63,755 nucleotides of DNA, from positions 1 through 63,755 of the forward strand of contig JAPLWM010000016.1 in assembly GCA_026396575.1 (NCBI GenBank). The letters are read 5' to 3'. The first letter of the stretch is position 1, and every line of letters begins with the position of its first letter. Shown piece after piece: positions 33,146 to 53,765 of this stretch. The DNA is from Candidatus Komeilibacteria bacterium (lineage in GTDB: Bacteria > Patescibacteriota > Patescibacteriia > UBA1558 > UBA10009). Both the position numbers and the translations under genes were made by a program. The notes under the pieces were generated by a model. That model had not been told where the DNA came from. It saw nothing but the letters and a program-made list of their open reading frames with translations, and made no database searches.

Positions 33146-33541
33146 TGGTGGAGATGGCGGGATTTGCACCCGCGTGTAACTACTTTTAAATAAAACTTCT
33201 ACTATAGATAGTTCTTTTTGCAATTTTCCGTTTGGCTGGATAAAAGAACAAAATCTGCGCCTCGGTAAGCCCATTAAGTTTCACTTTTTAAGGAAGGGCG
33301 CTTTAAAAAGCTAGCCTGGTTGTTGACACCCGGCACTGGATCTACAGGCGAAGACCCAAGCGGATGGTTGCAGTTTTTAGGCTACAACGGTAGCAAAGGA
33401 ATTAAAAGTGAAAGCGCTTTTAACCCTCGCTATAAAGTTCTTGGCATTTATATCCAAGCGCTCGATTTTTAAAGAAGATCCGAGCAACTTCCCTATAGCC
33501 GCCTTAAATTAAAAGTGAGCTAGCGAAGATAAGTCATCCCC
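33146..33541 (-). ncRNA. ssrA: tmRNA; tag (A)AKNFIARVKSAFTFNSFATVVA* at 33445-33377
   Basis: GGGGATG/CATCTCC-ACCA acceptor with G3-U70, T arm, TAAAT-GCC resume context, adjacent smpB. Confidence 0.92.
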
Positions 33542-39500: not shown

Positions 39501-40337
39501 CCGATTATTACGGGAGTAAGCGCCAATCATCAGGAGTACGTTGAAGGTTCTTTTGTTTATCTGGGGGGAAATTACATAGTGGGCTTAGCCAGGGATGATG
39601 GCGGCGGTTATCCACCATACTTGCTCCACCAATTTGTAAGTTCCGATAACGGCGACACCTGGACGGATCAGGGCGATGTTGATCTTAAGGCGCCTGTTGG
39701 TTCTAGCGGCGGCATTAAAATGCCCTGGCTTAGCACTTATATTTCCAATGGCAAACGGATAGCGGCGGCTTATTATTATGATCGTTCTTACAATGAATTA
39801 AGGGCTATTTACGGCGCTCCCGAAGATATTATTAAGGGAGTTTCCGGCTGGAAAAGCGATGACATAATAACCATTGCTCATAATTACAACCCGGTTTCCA
39901 ATGGGAGCGGATATCCAACCGTTGTTCATCCTTATGACAGCCCCGAAGGGCTTGGCTGGTTTTACGAGGAACTAACGGCAACGAAAACGCAAATGGTTTT
40001 CTTTAAGGTGCCGATAGACCGCTCAATGTTTAACAGCCCCATGGTTATCAATGTGGCAACTTCAACCATTAACGCGCCCGCTTTAAAAGTTGTCGCTACA
40101 TCCTCCATTGACTTAATCCAATTTTCCCAGCAAGGCACTGGTAAAATTTTAGGGCTTTATGACGGCGTTGCTTCATCAACTATAGATAAAAATTTGGCTT
40201 TTGGCGTTTATAATGGCGGTTATGCCAAATTGTACGCCACTTCCACGCAAACCGCCTTGCGGATTCAGGATTCAGCAATCTTCAACCGGCAATATTTTAG
40301 AATTGTACAGTTCTTCAACTTTGGCTTTAAGCGTTAA
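36588..40337 (+). CDS. 5' part of giant surface protein: HTH, TM, collagen-like stretch, BNR/Asp-box sialidase-like domain
   Basis: SLTEASGLCSYSQEYLSLLARKG HTH; 11 GXY triplets 38244-38342; four SxDxGxTW-type boxes; frame broken by 7-nt duplication at 40261-40274. Confidence 0.85.
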   Translation: MLNKKELKQNHVSHEALKAKGEQNQPVQTVDDLDRFVSLTEASGLCSYSQEYLSLLARKGLIGAVKMGRNWVITRRVLFSYIQGHAEDLKGNNRGRIMAAQEKVREFLENNIFTIRLSDLAKRGLAAAKLGLKRGWQNLPGLTKNAFKQSVGTTRQAADTVSRVFTPLVLKRALAILILTGFAALSFIISPVAAKYYKKDFDLIAKFASATVGRSLAAGSKSFQDTVKIYEDTIAFVKKPNVADVKITGKYLARGFADLGKDILVGSVFLANDFSNKYLDTAVLKLARFSESAGQVSKLLVSPTNVRDILAVAAETKLNYFDFQNFIGQLAATHNYASLHIFSPLIDSYAELGERVKLLAQNKLQPAIFAVRNSFNRGIIKLAQRKTIQPQVAGVYEIQETSNNFQVTKNTQISNFNFQAFLTAVKNSLKDNFKTGQTLVAQLGELFGKAPAKFIAFLQNSNDRPQILAGLFKRVGDGLADLANLSFDKFSRQLARDKFLAQLAYHNIFYPDTRLVSNKNFLTREEAVQLFGQIGQNITYITNAEGKIVGIVGPKGLAGLAGPAGPAGAKGEAGLPGIQGPPGGPFNGNTTQYGSTTVYNNSTVVQSLSALDSMSVKNGLGVGGNLTVAGSAQFGTNANNTFLVVGPATFNNSLTAGSLSTVGEATIGTTLKVTGVSTFAGNIAVGGMATITASTGDFNTQGNVTIGGTLNVGGSQFGATTTLSATGTNTILTVRQGGTGDLFNLYDGGTEVMTVTNGGYVGIGTSTPDVLLAIGNGQLKVAAAGPVTSQGHTLRLNVNNFSSAKVPAPLINGKYDAFGIIDMFPSGKFIIVYREGTDHATTLNGVIRIQTSVNQGGSWSAPVTIASANGIDLRNIGGGITPTGRLIVFYSRYNAVNPQRAEYIYSDDEGVTWSAPISMDRGEDYNSFVAYGKTIAIGNNTIMASFYGAQNDGIYTVAVVKSADNGKTWGKPIITGVSANHQEYVEGSFVYLGGNYIVGLARDDGGGYPPYLLHQFVSSDNGDTWTDQGDVDLKAPVGSSGGIKMPWLSTYISNGKRIAAAYYYDRSYNELRAIYGAPEDIIKGVSGWKSDDIITIAHNYNPVSNGSGYPTVVHPYDSPEGLGWFYEELTATKTQMVFFKVPIDRSMFNSPMVINVATSTINAPALKVVATSSIDLIQFSQQGTGKILGLYDGVASSTIDKNLAFGVYNGGYAKLYATSTQTALRIQDSAIFNRQYFRIVQFFNFGFKR
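40127..40267 (+). repeat. 141-bp exact direct repeat, second copy at 42219-42359
   Basis: Base-by-base identical. Confidence 0.95.
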
Positions 40338-43300
40338 AAACACCGGCCAAACAATTTTATCCGCTTTGCCAAAAATTTCGGCGCCGGCTTTATTGATTCA
40401 GCCGTACAACACTTCTTCTTTCAGCCAAACAACTTCCACTATGGCGCTGGTTAACGCCGCTTCCGGCTTTACCGGCGATTTGCTTTCCTTGCAGGTTAAC
40501 GGTTCAACCAAGTTCAGGATTGATTACCAGGGCAATGCCTCTTATTACAGCACTTCGGTTTATGGCGGCGATATAATTCCCGGTTTGGATAATACTTATG
40601 ATATCGGCAGTTTGGCAAACACCAAGCGCTGGCGCGATGTTTCCTTGTACCGCGATTTAAATATTGGCGCCGTTAATACCGCCGATAAATTAGTGCGCTT
40701 AAGTTCCACTTCCATCGCGGTTTACAATACCGATTTAACCATTCAAACGAATAATTCTAAAAATTTACTTTTAAATCCGAGCGGCAATAAAGTGGGGATC
40801 GGCTCTTCAACTCCGGCCGCAACTTTAGCCATCCAAAGCCAGCCGGGCCAAACTTATGATTTATTCCGCATTGGCACTTCTTCAAATTTAATTTTAGCTA
40901 CAACAACCGACGCTTCGTTCTTTAAAGTTTCGGCTGGTGGAAATACAACTATCGCTGGCAAAGCTATAAATCCAACCTGGGTCGGCCAATTATCCACCAG
41001 CTCTTTGGATTTTACTAGAGGAGTTTATGTGGTTGGCAATTACGCTTACATGACAGCTCACGACAGGGATGCTTTGGTTATAGTGGATGTTTCCAATCCA
41101 ACAAGCCCTACTTTTATTTCCGAATTAAGGCCTGATGGCGCCAATGGCAAGCTTGACGGCGCCAGAACGATTGTTGTCCAAGGCAAATATGCTTACATAA
41201 CCAGCCAAGACCGTGATGCTTTATCAGTTGTTGATATTTCCAATCCTTACAACCCGGTTTTTGTTTCCGAATTAAGGCCGAATGGCGCCAATGGATTATT
41301 GGATGGCATTTATGATATTTTTGTTTCGGGCAATTATGCTTATGTGGCAAATGTTTCCAGGGATTCTTTAGCCATTATTGATATTTCCAATCCTTACAAT
41401 CCGGTTTTTGTTTCCGAAGTTAAAAATCCCAATGGCAATAACGAACTTGACGGTGCTGCAGGGGTGTTTGTTTCCGGCAGGTATGCCTATGTAACTGGTT
41501 ATAGCAGGGATTCTTTTGTGATTATTGATGTTGCCAATCCGGCTTCTCCAAGATTTGTTTCGGAACTTCATCCCAGTGCGGTTGCGTTTGGACCGCTTGA
41601 TGCCGTTAGAGGGCTTTTTGTAAGGGGTAAATACGCTTATGTAGTTTCGGAACAAAGAAACGCCTTAACGATAATTGATATTTCCAACCCAACAAGCCCA
41701 ACTATAGTATCCGAAGAGCGCGGTCCGCGTCCGGGAAGTGGAACCGGAGATTATTCGTTAGGCGGCGGTTCGGGAATAGTTGTTTCCGGCAATTACGCTT
41801 ACATTGCCTTGGAACGGGGATCCTTTGCCGTAATTGATATTTCCAATCCCTTGGATCCTGTTTTTATTGCTGAAGTTAAAAATCCTGGTGGCAATAACGA
41901 ACTTGCCGGCGCTTTTGGATTATTCGTTGCCGGCAATTACGCCTATACTGCCAATGATGGCAATGACTCTCTTTCAATTATTGATATTTCGGGGCTTACG
42001 GTAAATAATGCAGAAATCGGCACTCTTAAAGTTGGCAATATGGTGGTTGATTCCATGGCGCAGTTTAACAGCGGCATGCAAATCCAAGGCGGATTAAATG
42101 TTGGCAAGGGCGCCATGTTTGGCGGACCGGTTGCCATTAATGTTTCCACTTCCACTTCGGTTGGAATTTCTGCTTTGACGGTTACGGCTACCTCTTCAAC
42201 TGATTTGATTGCCTTTGGCCAGCAAGGCACTGGTAAAATTTTAGGGCTTTATGACGGCGTTGCTTCATCAACTATAGATAAAAATTTGGCTTTTGGCGTT
42301 TATAATGGCGGTTATGCCAAATTGTACGCCACTTCCACGCAAACCGCCTTGCGGATTCATAAAGGCGCCAGTAATTATTTAACCGTTTCTAATAGTGGTT
42401 TGGTTGGCATAGGAACAACCACTCCCAAATCCGTTTTATCCGTTTCCACTCTGGCTCAAGTTTCCGGAAATACCAAATTATTTACTGTTGCTTCAACAAC
42501 CGGCGCCAGTTTGCTTACGGTTTTGGCTAATGGCAACGTGGGGATTAGCACCAGCACGCCTTCTTACAAATTAGCCGTTCAAGGAACCTCTAATAGTGTT
42601 GGCGCAATCGGCGCCGATCAGGTAACTAACGGCCTTTTTTCAACAGATCCTTCCGCCAATTGGACATATTCCGGAACTTGGTCTTGGAGTTCTTCCAGAA
42701 TGAACTATACCGGCACTACCGGCGGGGTCGCGGCTGTAACCATAGATAACGGCGGCACCGGCTATGCCGTTGGCAACACTTTAACCATTACGGGCGGAGG
42801 CGGCAATGCTGTTTTAACAGTTTCTACGGTTTCTTCGGGAGTTATTACCGCTGTAACCATTGCTTCAGCCGGAACTGGTTACGCAGTTGGCGCTGGCAAA
42901 ACTGTAACCGGCGGAGCCGGCTCCGGCGCGACTTTTTCCATTTCCCGCCTGTCAGACAGCGCCAATACATTATCCCAAAACGTTTCCGTAATTGCCAGCA
43001 GCACTTATGAGGTTGTTTACACGGTGGATTACCGTACGGCCGGAGAAGTTAATGTTACCTTAGGCGGAGTTTCAGGACACCGCATTAGCACTCTTTATAA
43101 TATTGTAAGCCAAATTATTACCACCAACGATACCGGTAACTTAATCTTTACCCCGACCGCTGATTTTTCCGGCAGGATTGACACTGTTTCCGTAAAGCTT
43201 TTAACCAAATCAACCGCTATTGCTTCTTTTGCCAATTCCAACGGCACCACCGGTATTGAAGTAAGATCGGGCGGTTCTAATTTCTACAATACTTTTATCG

Positions 43301-46300
43301 GCGTTAATGCCGGAATAAGTACTTATAATCCATCTTCTGTTTACGGCTTCTATAATTCAGCTTTTGGCAGCCAGGCTCTTATGGGTAATACTACGGGTAC
43401 CTATAATTCAGCTTTTGGCAGCCAGGCTCTTATGGGTAATACTACGGGCGAGGCTAATACGGCCATTGGGGCGGATACGCTTCAATTCAATACCATCGGC
43501 AAAACTAATATAGCAGTTGGAGCCGCTACCTTGAAATATAATACCACTGGCTCAAATAATACCGCTGTTGGTTATGGCACGCTTTTTTATAATACTACCG
43601 GCTTAAATAATACCACTTTTGGCTATGGCGCCGGCTACATTCAAACCACCGCTTCAAACAATATTTATTTAGGCTATCAAGCGGGTGATAACATTACTAC
43701 CGGTTCCAACAATATCGTTATCGGCTACGATATTAACGCGCCTTCGGCAACGGCTTCCAATCAGTTAAATATCGGCAATCTTATTTTTGGCACAGGCATA
43801 GACGGTACCGGTAATATTTTAAGCACGGGTAAAATCGGCATTGGCACCACTACTCCTGCTGCTAAATTCGCGGCTTCTTCAACCAGCAATATCGTTGCCA
43901 TGTTTGACCAAAGAGGCACTTCGGATATTTTAAGGTTGAATGACGCTGGCACGACCGTGTTTAAAGTCCAAGACGGAGGATATGTTGGAGTGGGAACCAA
44001 TACTCCAAAATCCGTGCTTTCTGTTTCCACTTTAGCTCAAGCTTCCGGAAATACTAAATTATTTACCGTGGCTTCAACCACCGGTGCTTCACTATTCCAA
44101 GTTTTAGGCAATGGAAATACAAGCATAAACGGCAATACTGTTATTACCGGCAATGCTACAACTACCGGCAAGTATTATGTTGGAGGTGATTTTAAAACAA
44201 ACGCCAATGCCACGACAACCGGCAGTTACTATATTGGCAATTCATTAACAGTCGCTGGCGCTTCGCTTTTTAGCAATCCTGCCACATTTAATTCTACAAT
44301 CAACGGCCAAACAATTTCCAGCGCTGCCAACTTTACCGGCTCGCTTACAACTGCCGGCAATATTAATACTACCGGCGGTGTAATTCAAACCAACTCCGTA
44401 ACCAGAATAGATAACTCCGGCAATCTAACCAACATCGGCACCATTACTTCCGGCCTTATCAATGGCCAAACTATTACATCGGCTGCCAACTTTACCGGTT
44501 CTTTAAATGTTGCCGGCAACACTACTCTGCAAGGAACATTGGCTGTTACTGGAAATCAAACTTTTGCCGGCAATTTTTCCGTGGGCGGCAGAGCAACCAT
44601 TACCGCCGCTACCGGCAACATACAAACCAGAGGCAATATTTACGCCACCGGCACATTAGCAATTGACGGACAATCAATTTTTAGAGATAAGATTGGCATC
44701 GGCACAACTTCACCCAAATCAATGTTGTCTGTTTCTACCTTGGCTCAACAAGCTTCAAATTACAAACTATTTACCGTTGCTTCCACCACCGGCGCTTCGC
44801 TGTTTCAAGTTCAAGGCAGTGGTTTGGTTGGCATTGGCACTACCACTCCTGTTGCCAATTTAACAGTTGCCGGTTCAGTTTCAGGCAGATCATTTAACGG
44901 CAATACTGCTGCCAGCTGGGGCGGACCATGGTTTGCCACAGGAACAAAGGACTTGCTGGCTTGGTATCCGCTAGGCAAGCGCGACAGCCAAAATGGCAAA
45001 ATGAGCGATATTTCGGGCAATGAACATCATGGCACCATAACAGCTGGCTCCAGCGCTGGTTTTGTGGCTGACTGGTCTGGCAGAATGGAATCGGCTTATG
45101 ATTTTGACGGAGCCGATACCAAAATTGATACGGGTTCGGATTGGATTGGCACACAGGCAGTTACTATTTCGGCTTGGATTTATGCGGATGGGTGGGGAGA
45201 AAGTGACAACGGGATGATTCTTTTTAATAATAAATTATTTATAGGGGTAAAATTAACAACAGATGAAGGTTATGTTGAAAATATTTGGGCAAGCAATAAT
45301 AATGCTTCTATTATTCATTCAGCAAGTTATTCAATAACTTTAGGAAACTGGTATCATGTTGTGGTTACAAGAAATTCAGCAGGAACAGGAAATATTTATA
45401 TAAATGGAGTTCAGTCAGGTGAAGCAAATCATAATTTTGGAACTCCAGAAGCAGGTACTACAAATGTAATAATTGGAAATAGCACAGGACAAACAGTAAC
45501 CTTTGACGGCCGCATTTCCGATTTAAGAGTATATAATAGAGTTTTATCAGCCGGTGAAGTTGCCGGATTATACAATGGTTCCGAATCAACTTATGCTACC
45601 CGCGTAGGCATTGGCACCACCACTCCTCAATCGGTGTTAAGCGTTACCACCGCTTTACAGCAGGCCGCTTCTACAAAATTATTTACAGTGGCTTCCACCA
45701 CCGGCGCTACTTTGTTCCAAGTATTAGGCAACGGCCAAACAATAGTTGGCTCTGGCGGCGCTGCCGGTTCCAACAAATTGACGGTTAATGGCAACTCGGT
45801 ATTTATAGGCAATGTAGGTATCGGCACCACCACGCCCGCGGCTAAATTATCTTTAGCCAGTCCAGGCTCGTTAGCTTCCGTGTTCCAGGTTGATGTTCCT
45901 TCTACTTATACCGGCAATCTTATAGATTTAAAAATAGCTTCAAGTTCCCGCTTGGTATTTAAAGAGAGCTCCAGCGGTTTAGGGCGTTTAGGAGTCGGCA
46001 CTTCCACTCCTTCAGCCAGAGTGTCCATTTCCGCTACCGCTCAAACAAGCCTGCCTTTACTTAGAGTTGCTTCAACCACTAATGCCACTTTATTAACCGT
46101 AGAATCCACTGGCAAAGTTGGCATCGGCTTAAGCAATCCTTCCGCTTATTTGCACGTTCAAGGCACTAACGAACAACTGCGTTTAAGCTACAATTCAACC
46201 GCTTACTGGTCCAACACCGTTAATGCTTCTGGAACTGCCACATTATTCGCCACCGGCAGGGACCCGGGATTTAATTTCCAAGTCAGGGACACAACCGCTT

Positions 46301-49300
46301 TAACGGTTAACGATGTTCAAATTACTTCCAACGTGCCTCTGCAAATTGCCCAATCAGGCGATGTTGGAGTTGCCGGAGATATTTTAATGTCCAACGGCAC
46401 CGCTTCCTATATAACAGGGGAGAATCCGTTAACTATCAGAACATATAATCCGTCGGCTAGCGTTGATTTAACCTTAACCGCGGCCAACAATGGCGTAGTG
46501 GTAATAGATGACGCTTTGGAAATTTACGGCACCACTACCATTGCCTTAACCCAAACTTCGGCTAACGCCGTTAATATTAAAGACCATTGGGGAACTAATA
46601 TTTTTAATATAAATAATTTAACCACTTCTTCACTGCGAACCTTTACTTTCGGGCCTAATAATGGAGCAGTGGCTACGGCTACCGGCATTCAAATCGGCTA
46701 TGGCGGAATTTGCGTTGATAACGACGGCAATTGCCAGGCCTCTACCACCGGCCGCGTTACCGCCCGTTCTTTCGGTACCGCCGGATCGGATGTGGCCGAA
46801 AATTATCCGTCGGTAGAGCATTTGGCAGCCGGTGATTTGGTTATGGCCGATCCCAATAATCCCGGCTATATTATTAAAACAACAGGCGAATACGATAATA
46901 ATGTTATCGGCGTAATCTCCGAAACTCCCGGCATTATTATGGGTTCCGAAGTAATCGGCTATCCCGTGGCTTTGGTTGGCAGGATTCCAACAAAAGTTTC
47001 TAATGTTAATGGCGAAATCAAGCCGGGCGATTTATTAACCGTTGCGCCTATTGCCGGTTATGCCATGAAGTTCAACGAAGGCGATACTTCCAAAATTATC
47101 GGCACGGCTTTGGATTCATTTAACGGCGCCGGCGCTTCAACCGACGGCCTTATTTCCATGTTTGTTAATCCGGATTACAAGTCGGTTAATAATCCTCAAA
47201 CATTCGGCTTAATTACCGATGGCCAGATTGCCACTAATGCCGCTATTTCCGATATTAAGCTGGCTACTATTTCCACTAAAGGCAAAATCATGGTAAGCGC
47301 TTTGCCGGTGGAAATCGCTTTGTTGCAGGGCGATACCCAGACCTTTACCGGCAATTATATTTTCGGCAAAGATGCCAATACTGCCGACTTGGTAGTTTTG
47401 AATGCCAAATTAGGCAGCGATATCAAGTTTGCCGCGGACAACTTCTATAATATAGGAAGCGCTGCCGCCTCGGCTGCCAATATTTATACCAAACAATTGA
47501 ATTCTTCCAAGATTGTGGTGGCCGCCGACATGGCCAATATGCAAAATATGAATCTTGACGATTACGGTTTGTATTTGGCCGCTTCATCGGGTAACGCTCT
47601 ATTTGGTGATAATGCGATTGTCGGTGCGCGCCGTGGCGCGCCCGTACAGGTAGCATTGCCCGAGTATCCTGATTTCGTAATGAACGGCGGCGACCTTTTA
47701 GTTAACGACGATTTGGGAGTGCGCGGCGATTTATACGTGGTCGGCGATATCCGCGTGGCCGGCGCCATTGAATTTGCCAAAGAGGGCATAGCGCAAATGA
47801 TGAATCTAACAGGTGAATATTTAATAAGCGGTAATATAGTGGTTGTTAATGCCAGCGGAACTTCACAAGGCAAGGTGGCTGCTTTGGCTAATTCCAGCGA
47901 AATTATTGGTGTGATTGGTACAAATTCTGCAGCGATTTTTGGACAAAATAATCATGAAAACAATTTACCTGTTATTGTTTCGGGCATGGCAATCGTTAAT
48001 GTTTCAGCGGAAAATGGATCTATCAAGAGAGGCGATAAATTAACCACTGCCGATTCGGCCGGTTACGCCCAGTTGGCTACCCGCCCGGGCGCCGGAGTTT
48101 TAGGCATTGCTGCCGAAGATTTAAGCGAAGGCCAAGGCAAAATAAAAGTTTTGGTGGATTTGGGAACCTATTTTGCGCCGCTGGCCAAGGTAATTACCGT
48201 GGGTTCGTCCGGCAGCGATTATAAAACCATTACCAAGGCTTTAAACTCCATTAATGATAATTCCAATGAAAATCGGTATTTAATCAAAGTAGCGCCGGGC
48301 GTTTATAACGAACAAATTATCTTGAAAGATTACGTGGACGTGGTGGGCGAAGGCAGCGGTTTGGTAACCGTTAAGAGCGATAAATCGCCGGTAGTAATCG
48401 CTTCCGCCAATGCCCGTTTGGAAGGCGCCACGATTTCTTCAAACAATTCTTCAAGCGAGCCGATGATTGTTTCCATTAATAACGATAATAAGGAAATAAT
48501 CTTGAAGGATTTGAAATTGGATGCCGCTACCGATAATCCGGCCGTGGGCGTAAGCATTACTGGAAATTCGGGCAAAATCATGTTAAGCGAATTAACTTTT
48601 AATTCAAACTTCACCCAAGGCATTGTTAATTTGGGCGCCGCCGATGTTTCGGTGATGAATTCCGATTTAAGCTCAATTATCGGCACGGCTTTAAGCGCCC
48701 AAAACGGCCGGGTTTTAACTTATAATAATAACTTTAACGGCGTGTTGGGCGATATTAACGTGGCTCAAGGCGCTCGCGTTGAATCCACCGGCGACCAGTA
48801 TGCCAAAGTCAGCAATGCCGGCGTATTCTTGGATAAAACCAACCGCGGCAAAGTTGACAGCGATTACATTGACTATGGTTGGTTAGCCGAGCAATCAGCC
48901 GGTTTGCAAATCAATATTTCCGCGGGCCAGGGCTATGTTAACGGCGTTAAGGTTAATACGGCGGCCGTTGGCAATTTGGCCGTAAATGCTTCTTCCACCA
49001 ATTATATTTTTATGACGGATGAGGGTAATGTTTTGGCTACAACTACCCCCAACCCCCTCTTTAATCTCCCCCTTGATAAGGGGGAGAAAGAGAGGGGGTC
49101 GGTTATCATCGCTACGGTGCAAACTTCCATTTCGGCCATTACTTCCATTTCCAATGAACGCGCCAACGAAATTACCGTGGCCAAGCAGGGCGGCAAATTC
49201 AGGACCATTACTGATGCCCTTAATTCCATAACTTCCGCTTCGGAACATAACCGTTGGACCATTAGAGTCGGCTCCGGCGTGTATAACGAACAAATTGTGT

Positions 49301-50619
49301 TAAAACCGTTTGTAGAGATAATCGGACAAAGTAAAGACAGCACGACAATTTTAGGTATCAATAAATCAGCTTTAGTTGCAGGAGTAAATGCCACAACAAC
49401 AGCAAGTGTTAAGGTTTCTAATCTTAAACTTTCCTTGGCCGGTGATATAACAGGTCAGGCAGTTGTATCAGCATCGTCAACTGATTTAACCTTGGAAGAT
49501 GTTAATCTTACTTGGTCAGGCAGTGAAGGCATTAATGGTACGGCGGTTGAGGTTAATGGCAACAGCAATATTACGATTAATCGGTTAAATATCAGCAATA
49601 TTGCTTATGGTATTGTAGCGACGCATAATTATGCGTCGCTACAGAATGGTTTAACTTTTGTTTCCACCTCTACCGTGGCCGTTTCCTATTCCACTATATC
49701 ATCATCTATCGCCGATATTAAAACGATTTGTATTAATACTACTACCAACCAGGATTGTGGCGCAGATGTACCGACGCATAATTATGCGTCGCCCAACATT
49801 ATTTCTTCCTATAACACCTTATCGGGAACAGGCACCAATTTTGAAGTAGCCAAGGGCACAATAATTTCTTCCGCCCACGATACCTACCTTAAATACACCG
49901 GTGAAGGCGAATTCCGGCAGAATGATTATTTTCGCAATAACAATAATCCAACGGCTTCATTATTCAACATTCAAAACGCCGGCTTTAATTTATTCAACGT
50001 TTCCGCTTCCGGCACCGTGGCCATTAATCCGCAGAATACAACAGGGGATAGCGTGGTTATCAGTTCGCCCACTGCTTCTTCTACTTTGACCGTGGTAAAT
50101 ACCGGCGCCGGCACGGCATTAAAGGTGGTTGGCAACGTGATTTTGACATCCGCCACCAGCGGTATTCCCGTGGTTTTATCGTCAGCCGGCGCCGAACTTA
50201 ACGTTGGCGCCCCCGGCGACACCATTAACCTTAATCTGGAAGGCGTGGTTTATAATTTCAAAGAAAACGTTAGAAAAGATACCATGTCGGCTTATTTATC
50301 CGCTCCTGTTTCCGGCGATCATATTTGGGGATCCTCTGCCAACGCCTGGTCGCCTTCGGAAAACATTACCGTGCTGGGCGTGAAGGTTCAATATTCCTGC
50401 GCCGACGGCGGCGTGTTGCAAATGGTTTTGAAAGATAAGAATGGCAATGTAATCGCCAATTTGGACGGATATTCCTGCGGCGGATTCTATAAGATTGAAC
50501 AGAATGATTTGCAATACCATTTAACGCCTGATGATGGCATGTATGTTGATGTTGTTTCCTCAACCGAGGGCGTAACCAATGTAACCGTGACGATTGAATT
50601 TGTGTATGATAATAGATAA
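40201..50619 (+). CDS. 3' part of giant surface protein: 7 LVIVD repeats, NTAxG repeats, LamG, DVAENY-type domain, two pectin-lyase-like modules
   Basis: Continuous ORF; true frame begins near 40268 (RIQQSSTG); joined gene would be 4,674 aa. Confidence 0.85.
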   Translation: MAFIMAVMPNCTPLPRKPPCGFRIQQSSTGNILELYSSSTLALSVKNTGQTILSALPKISAPALLIQPYNTSSFSQTTSTMALVNAASGFTGDLLSLQVNGSTKFRIDYQGNASYYSTSVYGGDIIPGLDNTYDIGSLANTKRWRDVSLYRDLNIGAVNTADKLVRLSSTSIAVYNTDLTIQTNNSKNLLLNPSGNKVGIGSSTPAATLAIQSQPGQTYDLFRIGTSSNLILATTTDASFFKVSAGGNTTIAGKAINPTWVGQLSTSSLDFTRGVYVVGNYAYMTAHDRDALVIVDVSNPTSPTFISELRPDGANGKLDGARTIVVQGKYAYITSQDRDALSVVDISNPYNPVFVSELRPNGANGLLDGIYDIFVSGNYAYVANVSRDSLAIIDISNPYNPVFVSEVKNPNGNNELDGAAGVFVSGRYAYVTGYSRDSFVIIDVANPASPRFVSELHPSAVAFGPLDAVRGLFVRGKYAYVVSEQRNALTIIDISNPTSPTIVSEERGPRPGSGTGDYSLGGGSGIVVSGNYAYIALERGSFAVIDISNPLDPVFIAEVKNPGGNNELAGAFGLFVAGNYAYTANDGNDSLSIIDISGLTVNNAEIGTLKVGNMVVDSMAQFNSGMQIQGGLNVGKGAMFGGPVAINVSTSTSVGISALTVTATSSTDLIAFGQQGTGKILGLYDGVASSTIDKNLAFGVYNGGYAKLYATSTQTALRIHKGASNYLTVSNSGLVGIGTTTPKSVLSVSTLAQVSGNTKLFTVASTTGASLLTVLANGNVGISTSTPSYKLAVQGTSNSVGAIGADQVTNGLFSTDPSANWTYSGTWSWSSSRMNYTGTTGGVAAVTIDNGGTGYAVGNTLTITGGGGNAVLTVSTVSSGVITAVTIASAGTGYAVGAGKTVTGGAGSGATFSISRLSDSANTLSQNVSVIASSTYEVVYTVDYRTAGEVNVTLGGVSGHRISTLYNIVSQIITTNDTGNLIFTPTADFSGRIDTVSVKLLTKSTAIASFANSNGTTGIEVRSGGSNFYNTFIGVNAGISTYNPSSVYGFYNSAFGSQALMGNTTGTYNSAFGSQALMGNTTGEANTAIGADTLQFNTIGKTNIAVGAATLKYNTTGSNNTAVGYGTLFYNTTGLNNTTFGYGAGYIQTTASNNIYLGYQAGDNITTGSNNIVIGYDINAPSATASNQLNIGNLIFGTGIDGTGNILSTGKIGIGTTTPAAKFAASSTSNIVAMFDQRGTSDILRLNDAGTTVFKVQDGGYVGVGTNTPKSVLSVSTLAQASGNTKLFTVASTTGASLFQVLGNGNTSINGNTVITGNATTTGKYYVGGDFKTNANATTTGSYYIGNSLTVAGASLFSNPATFNSTINGQTISSAANFTGSLTTAGNINTTGGVIQTNSVTRIDNSGNLTNIGTITSGLINGQTITSAANFTGSLNVAGNTTLQGTLAVTGNQTFAGNFSVGGRATITAATGNIQTRGNIYATGTLAIDGQSIFRDKIGIGTTSPKSMLSVSTLAQQASNYKLFTVASTTGASLFQVQGSGLVGIGTTTPVANLTVAGSVSGRSFNGNTAASWGGPWFATGTKDLLAWYPLGKRDSQNGKMSDISGNEHHGTITAGSSAGFVADWSGRMESAYDFDGADTKIDTGSDWIGTQAVTISAWIYADGWGESDNGMILFNNKLFIGVKLTTDEGYVENIWASNNNASIIHSASYSITLGNWYHVVVTRNSAGTGNIYINGVQSGEANHNFGTPEAGTTNVIIGNSTGQTVTFDGRISDLRVYNRVLSAGEVAGLYNGSESTYATRVGIGTTTPQSVLSVTTALQQAASTKLFTVASTTGATLFQVLGNGQTIVGSGGAAGSNKLTVNGNSVFIGNVGIGTTTPAAKLSLASPGSLASVFQVDVPSTYTGNLIDLKIASSSRLVFKESSSGLGRLGVGTSTPSARVSISATAQTSLPLLRVASTTNATLLTVESTGKVGIGLSNPSAYLHVQGTNEQLRLSYNSTAYWSNTVNASGTATLFATGRDPGFNFQVRDTTALTVNDVQITSNVPLQIAQSGDVGVAGDILMSNGTASYITGENPLTIRTYNPSASVDLTLTAANNGVVVIDDALEIYGTTTIALTQTSANAVNIKDHWGTNIFNINNLTTSSLRTFTFGPNNGAVATATGIQIGYGGICVDNDGNCQASTTGRVTARSFGTAGSDVAENYPSVEHLAAGDLVMADPNNPGYIIKTTGEYDNNVIGVISETPGIIMGSEVIGYPVALVGRIPTKVSNVNGEIKPGDLLTVAPIAGYAMKFNEGDTSKIIGTALDSFNGAGASTDGLISMFVNPDYKSVNNPQTFGLITDGQIATNAAISDIKLATISTKGKIMVSALPVEIALLQGDTQTFTGNYIFGKDANTADLVVLNAKLGSDIKFAADNFYNIGSAAASAANIYTKQLNSSKIVVAADMANMQNMNLDDYGLYLAASSGNALFGDNAIVGARRGAPVQVALPEYPDFVMNGGDLLVNDDLGVRGDLYVVGDIRVAGAIEFAKEGIAQMMNLTGEYLISGNIVVVNASGTSQGKVAALANSSEIIGVIGTNSAAIFGQNNHENNLPVIVSGMAIVNVSAENGSIKRGDKLTTADSAGYAQLATRPGAGVLGIAAEDLSEGQGKIKVLVDLGTYFAPLAKVITVGSSGSDYKTITKALNSINDNSNENRYLIKVAPGVYNEQIILKDYVDVVGEGSGLVTVKSDKSPVVIASANARLEGATISSNNSSSEPMIVSINNDNKEIILKDLKLDAATDNPAVGVSITGNSGKIMLSELTFNSNFTQGIVNLGAADVSVMNSDLSSIIGTALSAQNGRVLTYNNNFNGVLGDINVAQGARVESTGDQYAKVSNAGVFLDKTNRGKVDSDYIDYGWLAEQSAGLQINISAGQGYVNGVKVNTAAVGNLAVNASSTNYIFMTDEGNVLATTTPNPLFNLPLDKGEKERGSVIIATVQTSISAITSISNERANEITVAKQGGKFRTITDALNSITSASEHNRWTIRVGSGVYNEQIVLKPFVEIIGQSKDSTTILGINKSALVAGVNATTTASVKVSNLKLSLAGDITGQAVVSASSTDLTLEDVNLTWSGSEGINGTAVEVNGNSNITINRLNISNIAYGIVATHNYASLQNGLTFVSTSTVAVSYSTISSSIADIKTICINTTTNQDCGADVPTHNYASPNIISSYNTLSGTGTNFEVAKGTIISSAHDTYLKYTGEGEFRQNDYFRNNNNPTASLFNIQNAGFNLFNVSASGTVAINPQNTTGDSVVISSPTASSTLTVVNTGAGTALKVVGNVILTSATSGIPVVLSSAGAELNVGAPGDTINLNLEGVVYNFKENVRKDTMSAYLSAPVSGDHIWGSSANAWSPSENITVLGVKVQYSCADGGVLQMVLKDKNGNVIANLDGYSCGGFYKIEQNDLQYHLTPDDGMYVDVVSSTEGVTNVTVTIEFVYDNR
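43350..43448 (+). repeat. Intragenic tandem repeat, period 51 nt (YNSAFGSQALMGNTTGx)
   Basis: 48 identical nt in both copies. Confidence 0.9.
49045..49099 (+). repeat. C/G-run hairpin REP translated in-frame in the giant gene
   Basis: Encodes TPNPLFNLPLDKGEKERGS. Confidence 0.75.
49615..49642. repeat. 28-bp perfect GTAG palindrome in-frame in the giant gene
   Basis: gtagcgacgcataattatgcgtcgctac encodes VATHNYASL. Confidence 0.9.
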
Positions 50620-50634
50620 CATATCCCTTTCCAT

Positions 50635-50838
50635 ACCCCCTCCCAGCCTCCCCCTTTATATACCCCCTCTTAATCTCCCCCTAAGATAGGGGGAGAAAGT
50701 ATAGGAAGTAGGGGGAGAAAGTATAGGAAGTAGGGGGAGAAAGTATAGGAAGTAGGGGGAGGAGGCGCATCTTTTCCCCTCCTAGATTAGGAGGGGTTAG
50801 GGGAGGTAGTGTCGGGAGTAGAGGGGGCAGGGGGAGGT
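50635..50838 (+). repeat. Composite C/G-run REP containing three tandem 22-nt units
   Basis: tagggggagaaagtataggaag at 50687, 50709, 50731; direct sibling at 51450-51579. Confidence 0.85.
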
Positions 50839-50860: not shown

Positions 50861-51370
50861 ATGAACAACAATTTTGCCTACATAGACGGAAATAATCTTT
50901 ACAGGGGAGTTAATAATTCCGGCTGGAATATTGATTTTATAAGGTTTAGAAAATGGCTTTTAGATAAATATCAGGTTTCCAGGGCTTACTATTTTATCGG
51001 CTTAATTCCCAAAGAAAAGGATTTATATACCGCTTTGCAGGAAGCAGGGTTTACCTTGATTTTTAAAGAAGTTGTTTATAATTCTCAAGGTCAGGCCAAA
51101 GGGAATTGCGATGCTGATTTGGTTTTACAGGCGGTAAGCGATGCTTATGAAAATTTATGCGATCAAGATATTATTGTAACCAGCGACGGCGATTATGCCG
51201 GTTTGGTAAAATTTTTGCAGGCCAAGGATAAATTAAGGATTATTTTATCGCCCGGTATCCAGGAAAAATGTTCAATTTTATTAAAAAGAACCAATGCCCC
51301 GATTACGTATTTAAATGATATAAAAGATAAAATTTCCTTAAATTGGATAAATAGAAAAAGCCCCCATTAA
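50861..51370 (+). CDS. NYN domain protein (PIN-like putative RNase)
   Basis: AYIDGNNL, KGNCDADLV, VTSDGDYAGLV. Confidence 0.92.
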   Translation: MNNNFAYIDGNNLYRGVNNSGWNIDFIRFRKWLLDKYQVSRAYYFIGLIPKEKDLYTALQEAGFTLIFKEVVYNSQGQAKGNCDADLVLQAVSDAYENLCDQDIIVTSDGDYAGLVKFLQAKDKLRIILSPGIQEKCSILLKRTNAPITYLNDIKDKISLNWINRKSPH

Positions 51371-51404
51371 GGACGAACCTTAATAGGGTCTTTTTCGTAG
51401 TGAT
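51354..51404 (-). ncRNA. Predicted ~50-nt small RNA antisense to the NYN 3' end
   Basis: Perfect TTGACA-16-TATAAT upstream; long hairpin plus U5 downstream. Confidence 0.55.
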
Positions 51405-51410
51405 ATTCGT

Positions 51411-51438
51411 ATTATAGCAAATTAAAAAACTGTGTCAA
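51411..51438 (-). promoter_or_regulatory. Consensus sigma70 promoter pointing into the NYN 3' end
   Basis: TTGACA (51438-51433), 16 nt, TATAAT (51416-51411). Confidence 0.75.
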
Positions 51439-51449
51439 TAGGGCGATTT

Positions 51450-51579
51450 ACCCCCTCCCAGCCTCCCCCTTTATATACCCCCTCTTAATCTCCCCCTAAG
51501 ATAGGGGGAGAAAGTATAGGAAGTAGGGGGAGGAGTCGCATTTTCCCCCTCCTAGATTAGGAGGGGTTAGGGGAGGTAG
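51450..51579 (+). repeat. Composite C/G-run REP
   Basis: Direct sibling of 50635-50838 with a single 22-nt unit. Confidence 0.85.
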
Positions 51580-51687
51580 AAAAACTATGAAACAGCAATT
51601 AAATAAATATCTACGCGTATATCTCATCATCACGGTAATAATTACCAACGCTTTTATAAACGTTAATTTTGTGATTGCCGCCGGCAC

Positions 51688-51828
51688 GCAAACCAATTCT
51701 TTGGATAAAGGCCTGATTGCTCATTTCCCCTTAAACCGCGCCGCCAAGCAAAGTTCCACCAAATTTGCCGATACTTCGCCTTATGCCAGAATCGGAACTA
51801 TTACAGCAGGCGCATCAGCCGGGCTTTC
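51688..51828 (+). repeat. 141-bp exact direct repeat, second copy at 52359-52499
   Basis: Base-by-base identical; both copies end at a frameshift. Confidence 0.95.
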
Positions 51829-53594
51829 CAAAAGGGCCTGGCCGGCGGAGCTTATGATTTTGACGGAGCCAATACCAAAATTGTTACTAACTGGACTTCA
51901 AATTCAGAATTTCAAAATGGCTTTACTATCTCTGTTTGGATTAAATCCGATAGTTTGGGTGAAAACGAACAGGGAAGAATTGTTGATAAAAGTGACAGTA
52001 GTTTCGCAGTAAATGGGTTTGCGCTTGTGACTATAGTGGCTGGGGGTCAAAATTCGGTTCTATTTAACATAAAAAATACAGGAGATATCTATGCCCCAAT
52101 TACTTTAGGCGCCTGGCAACACGTTTTAGTAACGGTAAATTCTGCTGCGTATGCTTCAATGTATATTAATGGCGTATTTAAAGATGGTAAAACCCAAGCA
52201 GCATTATCAGGCATTACCACTGCTAATCCTTTAATTATCGGCAATCTTTTTAGTGATGGAAGGGGTTATGACGGCCGTATTTCCGATTTAAGAGTTTACA
52301 ACCGTGCCTTATCCGCTACCGAAGTTAAAAATCTTTACAAATCCTACGACCCTGTGGTGCAAACCAATTCTTTGGATAAAGGCCTGATTGCTCATTTCCC
52401 CTTAAACCGCGCCGCCAAGCAAAGTTCCACCAAATTTGCCGATACTTCGCCTTATGCCAGAATCGGAACTATTACAGCAGGCGCATCAGCCGGGCTTTCG
52501 GCGGAGCTTATGATTTTGACGGAGCCAATACCAAAATAGATACTGGTTCGGATTGGATAGGCACGCAGGCAGTTACTATTTCAGCTTGGATTTATGCTGA
52601 TGGCTGGGGGGAAGTAGGAAATGGTCTTGGAACAATAATTGATAATGGTAATCTAATATTGTTTCTGTATTCGGGAGGAGTTAATGAGTTGATATTTTAT
52701 TCAAATGGTGTTACTTATGGTGGATCTGGCGTTAATTCAATTAAATTAAATACTTGGTATCACGTAGTTGTAACCAGAAATAATGATAATGATGCTCATT
52801 GTAATTTTTATATCAATGGTGTTTTATCAGGAACTGCAAATCAACATTCTGCAACTGCTGGACCTGTTGCTGGCACAACTAATGTAATTATTGGCAATAG
52901 AAATGCTCAAGATAGAACTTTTGACGGCAAGATTTCCGATTTAAGAGTTTACAACAGGGTTTTAAGCGCGGGTGAAGTTAAAAATCTTTACAAATCCTAT
53001 GATGCCGGCATCACCACTAAATGCAGCGGACTGGTTGATGCCAGAGATGGAAAAGTTTATAAAACAATCCAAATCGGCAATCAGTGCTGGATGGCGCAAA
53101 ACTTAAATATCGGCACGCAAGTAAACAGCCCGGCCGCCGCTTCCGTAACTGCCGCCTGCACCGGCCATATCGGTGAAACATTAAGCATAGACGGCACCAG
53201 CTGTTACTGCGAAACAGCGGATTACGCTTCCTGCCAGTTAAACGGCGTAAACGGAACAATCCAAAAGTATTGCTACAATAATACAGCTTCCATGTGCGCG
53301 GCCGAAGGCGGATTGTACGAATGGCAGCAAACAATGAACTTGGCTTCTTCCTGCGCCCATTCCAGCTGTACTCCTGCCTCGGGCAATAAAGGCATTTGCC
53401 CATCCGGCTGGCACATTCCAACAGATGCGGAATTTAAAATTTTGGAAATAAATCAAAGTATGTCTCAAGCCCAGGCAGATGCCGCAGATTGGCGAGGCAC
53501 CACCCAAGGCGATAAATTAAGAGGCTCCGGTTTGTGCCAAGGCAGAACGCCTTGCGGAACGAGCGGCTTTAATGCCTTGTTAGCCGGCTATCGC

Positions 53595-53765
53595 AATGTT
53601 ACCGGTGCGTTTAATGGCCGTGCTTCCTACGCCAGCTTCTGGTCTTCCTTGCAGGATGAGGCTTTGTATACTTGGTCCCGGCTCTTGTACGTCAATTATT
53701 CTACCGTCTTTAGGGATACATTTAGTAAGAACTTCGGCTTCTCTGTAAGGTGTTTAAAGGATTGA
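53595..53765 (+). other. DGR variable region VR1 (putative)
   Basis: FWSS..Q....W.R.L......V.R....K..GFSVRCLKD scaffold; colinear 171 nt with VR2. Confidence 0.75.

Follow-up and report, generated by a model that had tools for sequence, protein, structure and literature searches.

The closest described relatives of the locus reported here are toxin-antitoxin systems of type I and type III, in which the antitoxin is an RNA. Type I toxins are typically small membrane peptides, with SymE and RalR as exceptions, and in bsrG/SR4 and txpA/RatA the toxin mRNA is degraded with the help of an antisense RNA that overlaps it at the 3′ end. In ToxIN, an endoribonuclease is joined by a small structured RNA, which is strongly expressed, with a terminator between the two partners. 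On the protein side, the NYN domain of MARF1 is an RNase, and NYN-type RNases recognise stem-loops, as known from the eukaryotic Regnase-1 literature. Most NYN/LabA proteins are, to our knowledge, not known as toxins. In par (Fst/RNA II) of Enterococcus faecalis pAD1, the toxin mRNA and a regulatory RNA (about 65 nt) are transcribed from convergent promoters, and the bidirectional terminator at which both end gives them their complementarity (PMC7472228). For yonT/SR6, a 3′ overlap between the toxin mRNA and its antisense RNA is described, with decay of the mRNA promoted by that RNA (PMC5848175).

CPR bacteria (Patescibacteria) represent a large share of bacterial diversity, and their small RNAs, toxin-antitoxin systems and defence are almost unstudied. 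In the window, which is the whole stretch of 63,755 bases that was analysed, a gene for an NYN RNase lies tail-to-tail with one for a hairpin RNA (about 55 nt), which has a strong promoter of its own. The same pair is present in about 175 loci that we gathered, mostly from ultra-small (CPR) bacteria. It probably represents an RNA-controlled nuclease module, similar to a toxin-antitoxin system, without earlier description. The module measures about 600 bp, and its features and borders in the window are the following:

50634 to 50810, plus strand: left copy of a G/C-rich interspersed repeat, with three 22-nt tandem units (50687-50756)
50861 to 51370, plus strand: gene of an NYN-domain (LabA-like, PIN-like) nuclease of 169 aa, stop codon TAA at 51368-51370
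51343 to 51404, minus strand: predicted small-RNA gene, composed of an 8-nt leader (AUCACUAC), the hairpin and a U-rich 3′ tail
51349 to 51359, minus strand: U-rich tract UUUUUCUAUUU, where the small RNA is expected to terminate, as read from the sequence and a terminator scan
51354 to 51396, minus strand: hairpin, also a bidirectional intrinsic terminator, based on fold energies and covariation
51411 to 51419, minus strand: extended −10 element TGCTATAAT, with TATAAT at 51416-51411 and a 16-nt spacer to the −35 that ends in TGC
51433 to 51438, minus strand: −35 hexamer TTGACA, an exact match, at a fixed position in the homologues
51448 to 51456, no strand assigned: site at which relatives carry a DnaA box by the −35; it reads TTACCCCCT and matches TTATCCACA at 6 of 9 positions
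51449 to 51580, plus strand: right copy of the G/C-rich interspersed repeat, delimiting the module on this side in the window

The NYN module and par are both convergent, compact and self-contained, and both have a shared terminator, which in the NYN module is read from the sequence. The par/Fst arrangement of convergent promoters around a bidirectional terminator is thus found here as well, with a conserved promoter on the RNA side; on the NYN side no promoter was identified, and no conserved promoter or leader motif was found upstream of NYN across the homologue loci. Where the NYN module encodes a nuclease of 169 aa, however, par has a membrane peptide of about 33 aa as its toxin. In par, direct repeats pair over the ribosome-binding site of the toxin, a second site that the NYN module lacks. 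The RNA of the NYN module is hardly more than a terminator hairpin, and its sequence conservation is far higher than that of the par RNA. The overlap of the RNA with the mRNA 3′ end is common to the NYN module and to yonT/SR6, bsrG/SR4 and txpA/RatA of Bacillus subtilis. These three lie in prophage regions of Firmicutes, their toxins, unlike NYN, are small peptides, and their antitoxins (100-220 nt) form longer overlaps. An invariant sequence core or a DnaA box, as in the NYN module, is not reported for them. The small antisense RNA overlapping the toxin mRNA, the mark of a type I antitoxin, is present at the sequence level and with a predicted transcript, whereas the small hydrophobic membrane toxin (under ~60 aa) is replaced by a soluble protein of 169 aa.

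Type III systems (ToxIN, CptIN and TenpIN) share with the NYN module the combination of an endoribonuclease with a small structured RNA as its possible binding partner and inhibitor. Their antitoxin consists of tandem direct repeats that precede the toxin gene on its own strand and are processed by the toxin, whereas the NYN module has a single hairpin, downstream and convergent. A repeat search found no tandem repeat inside the module, between the two flanking repeat copies, and thus no type III architecture; instead of the ToxN/AbiQ fold, the protein has an NYN/PIN-like one. The NYN/LabA-like PF01936 nucleases, namely VPA0982 (2qip), MARF1 (NYN domain) and Rae1/YacP, resemble our NYN in fold and acidic residues. 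They differ from it in the RNA: a dedicated convergent small-RNA gene is not known for them, and none was found in a literature search.

The assignment of the protein to the NYN family is supported by both sequence and predicted structure. It matches Pfam PF01936 with E = 8.5e-14 and 52.7 bits (cut-off 24.2). Its AlphaFold2 model (pLDDT 87.4) retrieved in Foldseek VPA0982 (2qip; E = 4e-10, TM 0.74) and the NYN domain of MARF1 (E = 3e-5, TM 0.63), and the significant top PDB matches were all NYN proteins. Five aspartates, D9, D84, D86, D109 and D111, are invariant among 24 NYN sequences (alignment A1) and are taken to be catalytic. Together, model and alignment show a PIN-like alpha/beta fold with conserved acidic active-site residues. 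A protein search with NYN returned 3,291 related protein clusters, the named ones being almost all from Patescibacteria. The subfamily consists of stand-alone proteins of about 170 aa, is almost confined to CPR bacteria, and appears patchy in its distribution, with at least 265 species genomes positive in the scan. PADLOC gave only weak matches for NYN (HEC-09 at 7.6e-6, NYN at 3.9e-5), and NCBIfam gave none.

The promoter of the small RNA in the window scores 12 out of 12 against the consensus. As the first-pass annotation had claimed, a perfect TTGACA-16-TATAAT lies on the minus strand (51438-51411); it is the single exact occurrence of TTGACA-N16-TATAAT when both strands of the 63,755 bases are scanned, and 100 dinucleotide shuffles contained none. 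In 78 homologue loci, the promoters score 8-12 of 12 and keep a fixed distance to the hairpin. Their −35 is TTGACA (43 loci) or TTGACT (29 loci), the spacer has 16 nt in 55 and 17 nt in 21 of them, TGn precedes the −10 in 49, and 13-14 nt separate the end of the −10 from CGAAAAAG in 59. Among copies from metagenomes, retrieved with the hairpin as search pattern (120 loci), 111 have a promoter of at least 9 of 12. The same annotation had seen no ORF served by this promoter, and we also found no conserved minus-strand ORF after the hairpin. The sole one past it in the window is a 33-aa TTG ORF (51294-51193) inside antisense NYN.

Transcription is predicted to start at A 51404 and to end near 51349-51354, which would give an RNA of ~51-56 nt. 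Its hairpin has an outer stem of 7 bp (GAAAAAG/CUUUUUC), an invariant A·G mismatch, an inner stem of 11 bp (CCCUAUUAAGG/CCUUAAUGGGG) and the loop UUCGU, and is followed on the minus strand by CUUUUUCUAUUU. The hairpin announced by the first reading of the sequence is therefore real, with 18 pairs in its stem and not the ~19 given there, and its overlap with the last 17 nt of the NYN coding sequence holds, stop codon included. In the homologues, alignment columns 47-56 are at least 89% T, except for column 53 at 77%. The minus-strand RNA folds with −24.2 kcal/mol (z = −6.1), and none of 200 shuffles was as stable. The plus strand folds with −20.7 (z = −3.5), and there the hairpin resembles a terminator for NYN, its stem being followed by UCUUUUUCG. 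The description as a bidirectional terminator is based on this folding on both strands and on the A-tract and U-tract that flank the hairpin. Because the hairpin is common to both transcripts, the final ~45 nt of the NYN mRNA, with the stop codon among them, would be perfectly complementary to the RNA. With our covariance model (R1), the minus strand of the element in the window scores 79.5 bits (E = 2.6e-17) and the plus strand 31.7 bits; the model detected this one copy in the window and no other.

In 78 of 80 homologue loci, the 3′ end of NYN is accompanied by the same minus-strand element of promoter, 8-nt leader and hairpin. These loci are the top protein matches from genome assemblies, share 58-80% amino-acid identity and come from many CPR lineages. 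Ten of the 18 pairs change on both sides, which none of 500 shuffles matched. Across 79 sequences there are 137 compensatory cells, as opposed to 36 ± 10 in the shuffles, none of which reached the observed value. The covariation is located in the upper stem. The structure belongs to the minus strand: pairing is kept in 94.7% of cells there and in 87.3% on the plus strand, G·U cells outnumber A·C cells 117 to 13, and the minus strand is the more stable one in 74 of 79 loci. Covariance scores across copies lie at 65-84 bits (minus) and 17-37 bits (plus). One pair is U·G in 59 of 79 sequences, which indicates that the folded strand is the minus-strand RNA. Furthermore, the position of the NYN stop codon with respect to the hairpin varies from −5 to +46 and covers all three frames, and the conservation is therefore at the nucleotide and not at the protein level. 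In the leader, conservation is at least 90% at columns A1 and U2 and complete at A7 and C8; the A·G mismatch, loop bases G32 and U33, and the CCC/GGG stem base are likewise invariant. Part of this invariance can be explained without a partner, because a bidirectional terminator needs an A-tract, a U-tract and a GC-rich stem base. Where NYN copies stand in tandem, each has its own RNA, and the stems differ. Rare variants of the RNA core are seen in copy 1 of locus L046, copy 2 of L056 and L202.

The comparative check proposed by the first-pass annotation, conservation beside NYN homologues and covariation of the hairpin, thus came out positive, the opposite of the outcome it had given as refuting, and we regard the element as a real, undescribed RNA gene linked to NYN. 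Features that this annotation did not mention are the second role of the hairpin as a terminator for NYN, the DnaA box near the promoter in relatives, the local repeat on either side of the module, and the departures from type III architecture and from the peptide toxins of type I. It had recognised no described family in the module, and our searches agree. Rfam 15 returned nothing at gathering score at the hairpin position, and up to E = 10 only terminator-like chance matches (the best, rli38, with 27 bits against a gathering score of 49), so that a known RNA family was rejected. No description of an NYN-RNA pair was found in the literature on NYN/LabA, Patescibacteria/Parcubacteria, toxin-antitoxin systems or antisense RNA.

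The genomic context of the module is variable. All-against-all clustering of the flanking ORFs found no gene family shared among the flanks, and no transposase or integrase linked to the module. A conserved neighbour or operon partner was therefore rejected, which makes NYN and its RNA a self-contained module. In most loci, the next gene lies on the same strand as NYN, within 80-200 nt. Decay of the module is one-sided, with NYN lost and the RNA kept. Among loci found via the RNA alone, NYN is deleted or truncated in 22 of 103, while the RNA beside it has the exact motif and, of 30 promoters scored, 27 have at least 9 of 12. NYN loci without hairpin are 2 of 80 (Fisher p = 1e-4), in a comparison of sets gathered differently, as top protein matches in genome assemblies and as exact RNA-motif matches in metagenomes. 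By design, the exact-motif set contains only intact RNAs, and RNAs that outlast their NYN are therefore no proof of selection on the RNA.

A single DnaA box, 2-10 nt from the −35 and just upstream of it, accompanies about a third of the copies. Boxes within 40 nt of the −35 occur in 29 of 78 and 32 of 111 loci, compared to ~1% of background windows (p ~1e-34 to 1e-36). Further boxes in the next 300 nt are at background rate (0.10, with 0.08 expected), and an oriC element was rejected, because the box is single and not part of a cluster. In the window, the C-rich repeat sets in at 51449 and this position is therefore degenerate; L201, which is the closest relative with 91% amino-acid identity, has TGTCAATAGGGCGGTTTATCCACA where the window has TGTCAATAGGGCGATTTACCCCCT. 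The G/C-rich repeat brackets the NYN and RNA module in the window, and 84 nt of its left copy are 100% identical to 51449-51532. The bracketing repeats were rejected as target-site duplications, given that members of the repeat family are present at seven places in the window.

In our preferred reading, to which we give a probability of about 0.5, the NYN RNase is neutralised or negatively regulated by the RNA in a toxin-antitoxin-like or addiction-like cassette, with the RNA acting as antisense RNA, by binding the protein, or both. This reading is partly and indirectly supported by the self-contained nature of the module in variable contexts, the near-consensus promoter and the one-sided decay. 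The predicted RNA would be transcribed from its own near-consensus sigma-70 promoter, convergent with NYN, and made in such excess that a potentially toxic NYN is kept silent. At the 3′ end of the NYN mRNA, the loops of two complementary hairpins could make contact and a duplex could spread from there, leaving the mRNA open to double-strand-specific cleavage and 3′ decay, in the manner of type I systems with a 3′-overlapping antisense RNA. Pairing of the 5′ part of the RNA with the NYN start region, the par-like second site, was not supported, as duplex energies were no better than for shuffles (mean z = −0.35; below −2 in 6 of 65 loci). Any antisense effect should therefore come from the 3′ end only. 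The hairpin may also be recognised directly by NYN, as a type III-like component: leader A7 and C8, the A·G mismatch, loop G32 and U33 and the CCC/GGG base are unneeded for cis-antisense action, which makes direct recognition by NYN the most likely explanation for them. Binding and inhibition of NYN by the RNA are suggested only by the unpaired ones among these invariant bases. In the third of modules in which a DnaA box abuts the −35, RNA output might be tied to the replication initiator; in the window, the box has been overrun by the repeat.

A more far-reaching version, which we put forward tentatively and with considerable doubt, is a new class of RNA antitoxin, in which the invariant hairpin binds and inhibits, or is cleaved by, the NYN RNase, and its synthesis is gated by DnaA at the −35. 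If true, the antidote would cease and the nuclease would be freed whenever replication stalls or is hijacked, for example by a phage. It would be the first pair of an NYN toxin and an RNA antitoxin, the first DnaA-controlled toxin-antitoxin switch, and the RNA would be among the first functional small RNAs defined in CPR bacteria.

Other explanations attribute the pair to something else than control of a toxin. The RNA could itself be the functional product, trans-acting or protein-sequestering and under DnaA control, with NYN as the enzyme for its processing or turnover and no toxicity or addiction. The invariant leader, mismatch and loop bases do point to a sequence-specific partner, RNA and promoter are intact where NYN is deleted, the DnaA box suggests a regulated output, and stem-loop recognition is what NYN-type RNases such as Regnase-1 are known for. 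We nevertheless consider it unlikely. The module has no conserved target or partner gene, and with an 8-nt leader and a loop of 5-6 nt as its only single-stranded parts, the RNA offers little for pairing in trans. A patchy family in which NYN is often deleted fits an accessory element better than a regulator, and the differing stems of tandem copies suggest specificity for a cognate partner. Transcription alone might also be what matters, with a strong convergent promoter colliding with or occluding NYN transcription, a hairpin that insulates the neighbours and an RNA that is a by-product. This would agree with the convergent layout and the one bidirectional terminator for both genes, with an NYN that has no conserved promoter of its own, and with a next same-strand gene so close in most loci that a strong terminator is useful. 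Yet the polymerase would halt at the hairpin before NYN, so that collision within the gene is minimal. Ordinary terminators are not conserved in sequence across proteins of 58-80% identity, and the minus-strand-specific G·U pairs, together with the unpaired bases that are conserved, show that the RNA product is under selection, which makes this explanation quite improbable.

The latter observations also bear on readings that dispense with the RNA altogether. A plain NYN terminator was rejected, as the wobble pairs fit the minus strand only and the unpaired bases are invariant. That a promoter-like match happened to arise beside such a terminator has a negligible chance of being right: the plus-strand hairpin does resemble an NYN terminator, but promoter, spacing, leader and hairpin are kept in 78 of 80 genome loci, the 111 metagenome copies have their promoter, and shuffles contain no perfect one. 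The comparative data across loci thus refute a chance promoter. A DNA-level role, in which the hairpin serves a mobile element as a site for recombination or nicking by NYN and the promoter is incidental to mobility, would account for the variable context, the direct repeats around the module in the window, and two loci with rearrangements, one with the promoter region duplicated upstream of NYN (L060) and one with the hairpin precisely excised (L056). Against it, the wobble asymmetry shows folding of an RNA from one strand, the distance of the promoter is constant in all copies, the repeats on either side are members of a window-wide family, no transposase or integrase is linked, and the nearest structural relatives of NYN include MARF1, an RNase. 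We therefore regard such a site as very improbable.

Independent of its function, the RNA is a cleanly defined family, with promoter, predicted start, covarying hairpin and terminator, that is tied to a nuclease family of thousands of protein clusters. If it restrains the nuclease, as in our preferred reading, RNA antitoxins would extend to an NYN/PIN-like toxin, and the RNA would be a minimal antitoxin that doubles as the terminator of both genes. The DnaA box raises a possible link between replication state and RNA cleavage.

Mobility of the module is suggested by its variable context only. On plasmids, only distant NYN genes were found, with 25-32% identity and from alphaproteobacteria, and no such RNA element was seen in the one 3′ flank read by eye. 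Deposited phage genomes contained no NYN relative by tblastn, and the exact RNA pattern had no match in viral contigs. A protein scan of viral contigs did return one distant NYN homologue with the RNA element present. In this homologue, of 39% identity and on a predicted viral contig, the layout is kept, and the stem is different and compensated.

The NYN gene of the window is faced by a convergent RNA gene, predicted from a promoter, a short leader and a terminator-like hairpin.

50861-51370, plus strand: NYN-domain protein, 169 aa (Pfam E = 8.5e-14)
51438-51411, minus strand: perfect extended sigma-70 promoter, TTGACA, a 16-nt spacer ending in TGC, and TATAAT (from the sequence)
51396-51354, minus strand: hairpin, directly 3' of the AUCACUAC leader (from the sequence)

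The exact TTGACA-N16-TATAAT pattern occurs once in the 63,755 bases, with both strands scanned, and in none of 100 shuffles. The first-pass annotation had described this promoter, an RNA start near 51404 and an overlap with the last 17 nt of the CDS, and all three are borne out. The predicted start is the A at 51404, seven bases past the -10 element and the first base of the AUCACUAC leader, and the overlap with the reading frame includes the TAA stop. The hairpin it had reported is also present, with 18 counted pairs in place of the claimed ~19 bp: an outer stem (GAAAAAG/CUUUUUC), an A·G mismatch, an 11-pair inner stem with one U·G, and a UUCGU loop. On the minus strand, a U-rich tail lies 3' of the hairpin and the fold energy is -24.2 kcal/mol (z = -6.1), compared with -20.7 (z = -3.5) on the plus strand. 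There, the hairpin is followed by UCUUUUUCG and therefore also resembles a terminator of the NYN gene, so that it looks like a bidirectional terminator. Similar promoters at similar distances precede other RNA genes of the window, tRNA-Asp and a tRNA with an unusual anticodon loop, which makes it plausible that such promoters function in the source organism. For the tRNA at 26284-26357 (minus strand; Rfam tRNA score 55.5 bits), ARAGORN gives a four-base anticodon (acaa) with no assigned amino acid, and a TTGACA-17-TACAAT promoter of its own lies 11 nt upstream.

The comparison covers 80 homologue loci from genome assemblies, with 58-80% identity and from many candidate phyla; all evidence is sequence-based and comes from metagenome-derived assemblies. 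Archaeal, gammaproteobacterial and Bacteroidetes bin labels of some loci are probably binning errors and were not relied on. Conservation of promoter and hairpin next to NYN homologues, which the first-pass annotation had proposed as a check, was found in 78 of the 80 loci, on the minus strand at the NYN 3' end. Among these 78, the -35 element is TTGACA in 43 and TTGACT in 29, the spacer measures 16 nt in 55 and 17 nt in 21, TGn directly precedes the -10 element in 49, and the distance from the -10 end to CGAAAAAG is 13-14 nt in 59.

The stem also covaries, a further check from the same source. Across 79 distinct copies (alignment A2), standard pairs fill 94.7% of cells (85.9% in shuffles; 43-74% in a sliding-partner control), 10 of the 18 pairs changed on both sides (6.2 ± 1.1 in shuffles), and compensatory cells number 137, compared with 36 ± 10 in shuffles, none of 500 reaching 137. 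Variation is found in the upper seven pairs (e.g. AUUAAGG/CCUUAAU, AUGCGG/CCGCAU, GCGGGG/CCCCGC). Little or no change is seen in the CCC/GGG stem base, in the A·G mismatch, at positions A7 and C8 of the leader or at loop positions G32 and U33. A U·G pair occupies one stem position in 59 of the 79 sequences, and G·U cells total 117, compared with 13 A·C cells. Plus-strand folding would pair just 87.3% of cells, and the minus strand is the more stable in 74 of 79 loci. With R1, the covariance model built from A2, every locus reaches 65-84 bits on the minus strand, compared with 17-37 on the plus strand. The selected structure is thus, as these patterns indicate, a minus-strand RNA that runs in the direction of the promoter. 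In the window itself R1 gives 79.5 bits on the hairpin's minus strand and 31.7 on the plus strand; no second copy was found within the 63,755 nt, and Rfam 15 holds no family for the hairpin RNA.

The window protein is a genuine NYN/LabA family member, its AlphaFold2 model (pLDDT 87.4) having the LabA-like protein 2qip and the MARF1 NYN RNase domain as best structural matches. Related proteins form 3,291 clusters, the named ones almost all from Patescibacteria/CPR, and the 119 relatives listed are 65-91% identical to it. Their C-termini read KRKSPH or KEKAPIKDEP, which are one nucleotide string, GAAAAAGCCCCCATTAAGGACGAACCT, in two reading frames. NYN stop codons occur in all three frames, from 5 nt short of the hairpin to 46 nt into and past it, and this scatter therefore indicates that conservation at the module's 3' end is one of nucleic acid, not protein. 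Upstream of the NYN start codon, no conserved motif was found among the homologue loci compared. No promoter was recognised for the window's NYN gene itself. The gene starts 240 nt past the end of a 3,472-aa reading frame (40201-50619, plus strand) that contains repetitive segments resembling beta-propellers and LamG, and NYN transcription may come by read-through from that gene or from repeats.

The conserved block extends from the NYN start codon to just past the -35 of the RNA gene, and clustering of all flanking ORFs of the 80 loci gave no shared family besides NYN. Where NYN is duplicated (loci L046 and L073), each copy has one RNA gene, with different stems. Both loci are tandem modules, the two L046 copies differing in stem sequence, and at locus L060 a second copy of the RNA promoter region lies upstream of NYN. 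A NYN homologue of just 39% identity lies on a predicted viral contig (L202; IMG/VR UViG_3300005823_000488, 1-600). The convergent promoter, the A/U outer stem and a leader reading AUCACUAU are retained there, the loop is UUUUGU, and the hairpin (R1 32.4 bits) has an inner stem of different, compensated sequence. The other ORFs of the contig gave no Pfam match. Alphaproteobacterial plasmids carry distant NYN genes (25-32% identity), and no hairpin element was seen by eye in the 3' flank of one of them.

Decay of the module is one-sided. A search of metagenome contigs with the RNA core only gave at least 120 loci, 103 of them true copies with 520 nt or more of sequence on the NYN side (L102, a generic terminator, excluded). 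Among the matches listed, a convergent NYN is intact in ~81 of the 103, and in 22 it is truncated or cut to a few N- and C-terminal codons by large internal deletions (e.g. L097, L124, L131, L139, L155, L173, L179, L193). The core is exact in 30 scored RNA copies without an intact NYN, and 27 of their promoters match at 9/12 or more, again among the matches listed. The hairpin is missing from just two of the 80 NYN-anchored loci: L035 has a replaced C-terminus, and in L056 (380-1100) the hairpin is precisely excised and the promoter kept, with a remnant module with a variant RNA gene 130 nt downstream. The asymmetry is significant (Fisher p = 1e-4), for sets that were gathered differently and with the RNA-anchored set intact by construction. 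Loss of the nuclease with the RNA kept, and rarely the reverse, is the pattern expected if the RNA were an antidote. In L155 the NYN of the orphan RNA is almost wholly deleted, and a second, different NYN-like gene starts directly past the RNA's promoter (~6300-6799; NYAFIDSQNVNLAIREQGW...), the contig ending before its 3' end.

An RNase gene predicted to be catalytically intact and without a conserved promoter, a short, complementary, stably folding RNA with its own near-consensus promoter, a self-contained module in variable contexts, and a nuclease side that is often decayed together lead us to read the module as a nuclease cassette of toxin-antitoxin type under RNA control, with a probability of roughly 0.5. 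The predicted RNA is a perfect complement of the NYN mRNA's 3' end, including the stop codon, and a putative antisense route is in this sense built into the architecture. No second pairing site was found at the NYN start, so any antisense effect must work from the 3' end, where it could strip the protective terminator hairpin or the stop codon from the mRNA. Pairing in cis leaves the invariant unpaired bases unexplained, and the need for a two-way terminator covers the A/U tracts and the GC-rich base, not the A·G mismatch, leader AC or loop GU. NYN is the only constant companion of the RNA, and a natural second component would therefore be that NYN itself recognises the hairpin, which would serve as its inhibitor, its substrate or both. 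It is also conceivable that NYN mRNA cut upstream of its stop codon is tagged by trans-translation; a tmRNA gene lies at 33146-33541 (minus strand; 93 bits in Rfam).

Other readings of the locus fare less well. That the RNA is the functional product and NYN its processing enzyme is doubtful, if the strongest competitor to the cassette. Purely transcriptional interference or insulation, with the RNA as by-product, is unlikely given the selection on RNA fold and unpaired bases. We give very little credence to the hairpin as a DNA site of a mobile element, against which stand the strand-specific wobble pairs and the fixed promoter, and a chance promoter match is refuted by the comparative data.

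Among known systems, the cassette would work most like type I modules of the par or Bacillus 3'-overlap kind. In par, two promoters converge on one bidirectional terminator (PMC7472228), a layout that the NYN module resembles, and yonT/SR6 combines a 3' overlap, likewise predicted for the NYN module, with promoted decay (PMC5848175); both are precedents for the antisense route. However, the module belongs to neither family, as its putative toxin is no small membrane peptide and par-type repeats are absent. Nor is it type III by definition, without an upstream tandem-repeat RNA and the ToxN fold, although a type III-like protein-RNA mechanism may apply. No published description of a NYN and hairpin RNA pair was found in the literature searched, and we propose that, within the broad class of toxin-like modules under RNA regulation, both the RNA family and the pairing of nuclease and RNA are new.

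About 30-37% of modules carry a candidate DnaA box (a 9-mer with at most one mismatch from TTATCCACA, within 40 nt upstream of the -35). It was found in 29 of 78 genome loci (20 perfect; background 40-nt windows 0.9%, 0.09% perfect; Fisher p ~1e-36) and in 32 of 111 metagenome loci (16 perfect; background 40-nt windows 1.1%; Fisher p ~1e-34), its distance from the -35 being 2-5 nt for one orientation of the box and 5-10 nt for the opposite one. The next 300 nt contain additional boxes only at the background frequency, so the box is judged to be single, and this points to a promoter-proximal site, not an origin. With the consensus match as its sole basis, the box suggests that RNA output is tied to the replication initiator, whose state it would follow in many modules. 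The closest relative of the window's module (L201, 91% amino-acid identity) has TGTCAATAGGGCGGTTTATCCACA where the window has TGTCAATAGGGCGATTTACCCCCT; the box position in the window (51448-51456) is taken by the first bases of a C-rich interspersed repeat. Seven copies of this G/C-rich family, which may be REP- or MITE-like, lie in the window, all on the plus strand.

3689, 36294, 50776, 51546, 53787, 55307 and 62394, plus strand: repeat 31-mers with the shared sequence CCCCTCCTAGATTAGGAGGGGTTAGGGGAGG
50634-50810 and 51449-51580, plus strand: longer repeat copies bracketing the NYN module (repeat comparison)
50687-50756, plus strand: tandem 22-nt units within the left repeat copy

The longer copies add TACCCCCxCCCAxCCTCCCCCT...AGGGGGAGG, giving two short palindromes, and a motif of similar kind precedes the NYN gene of L201. 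The presence of the family at seven places rules out the bracketing copies as target duplications; they are therefore local genome features. Downstream of the module, a LamG / Fib_succ_major region (51587-53765) of three overlapping or adjacent ORFs contains a 100% identical 141-nt direct repeat (51688-51828 and 52359-52499) and additional repeats of 83-96% identity, and looks like recently duplicated, frameshifted paralogues or an assembly collapse.
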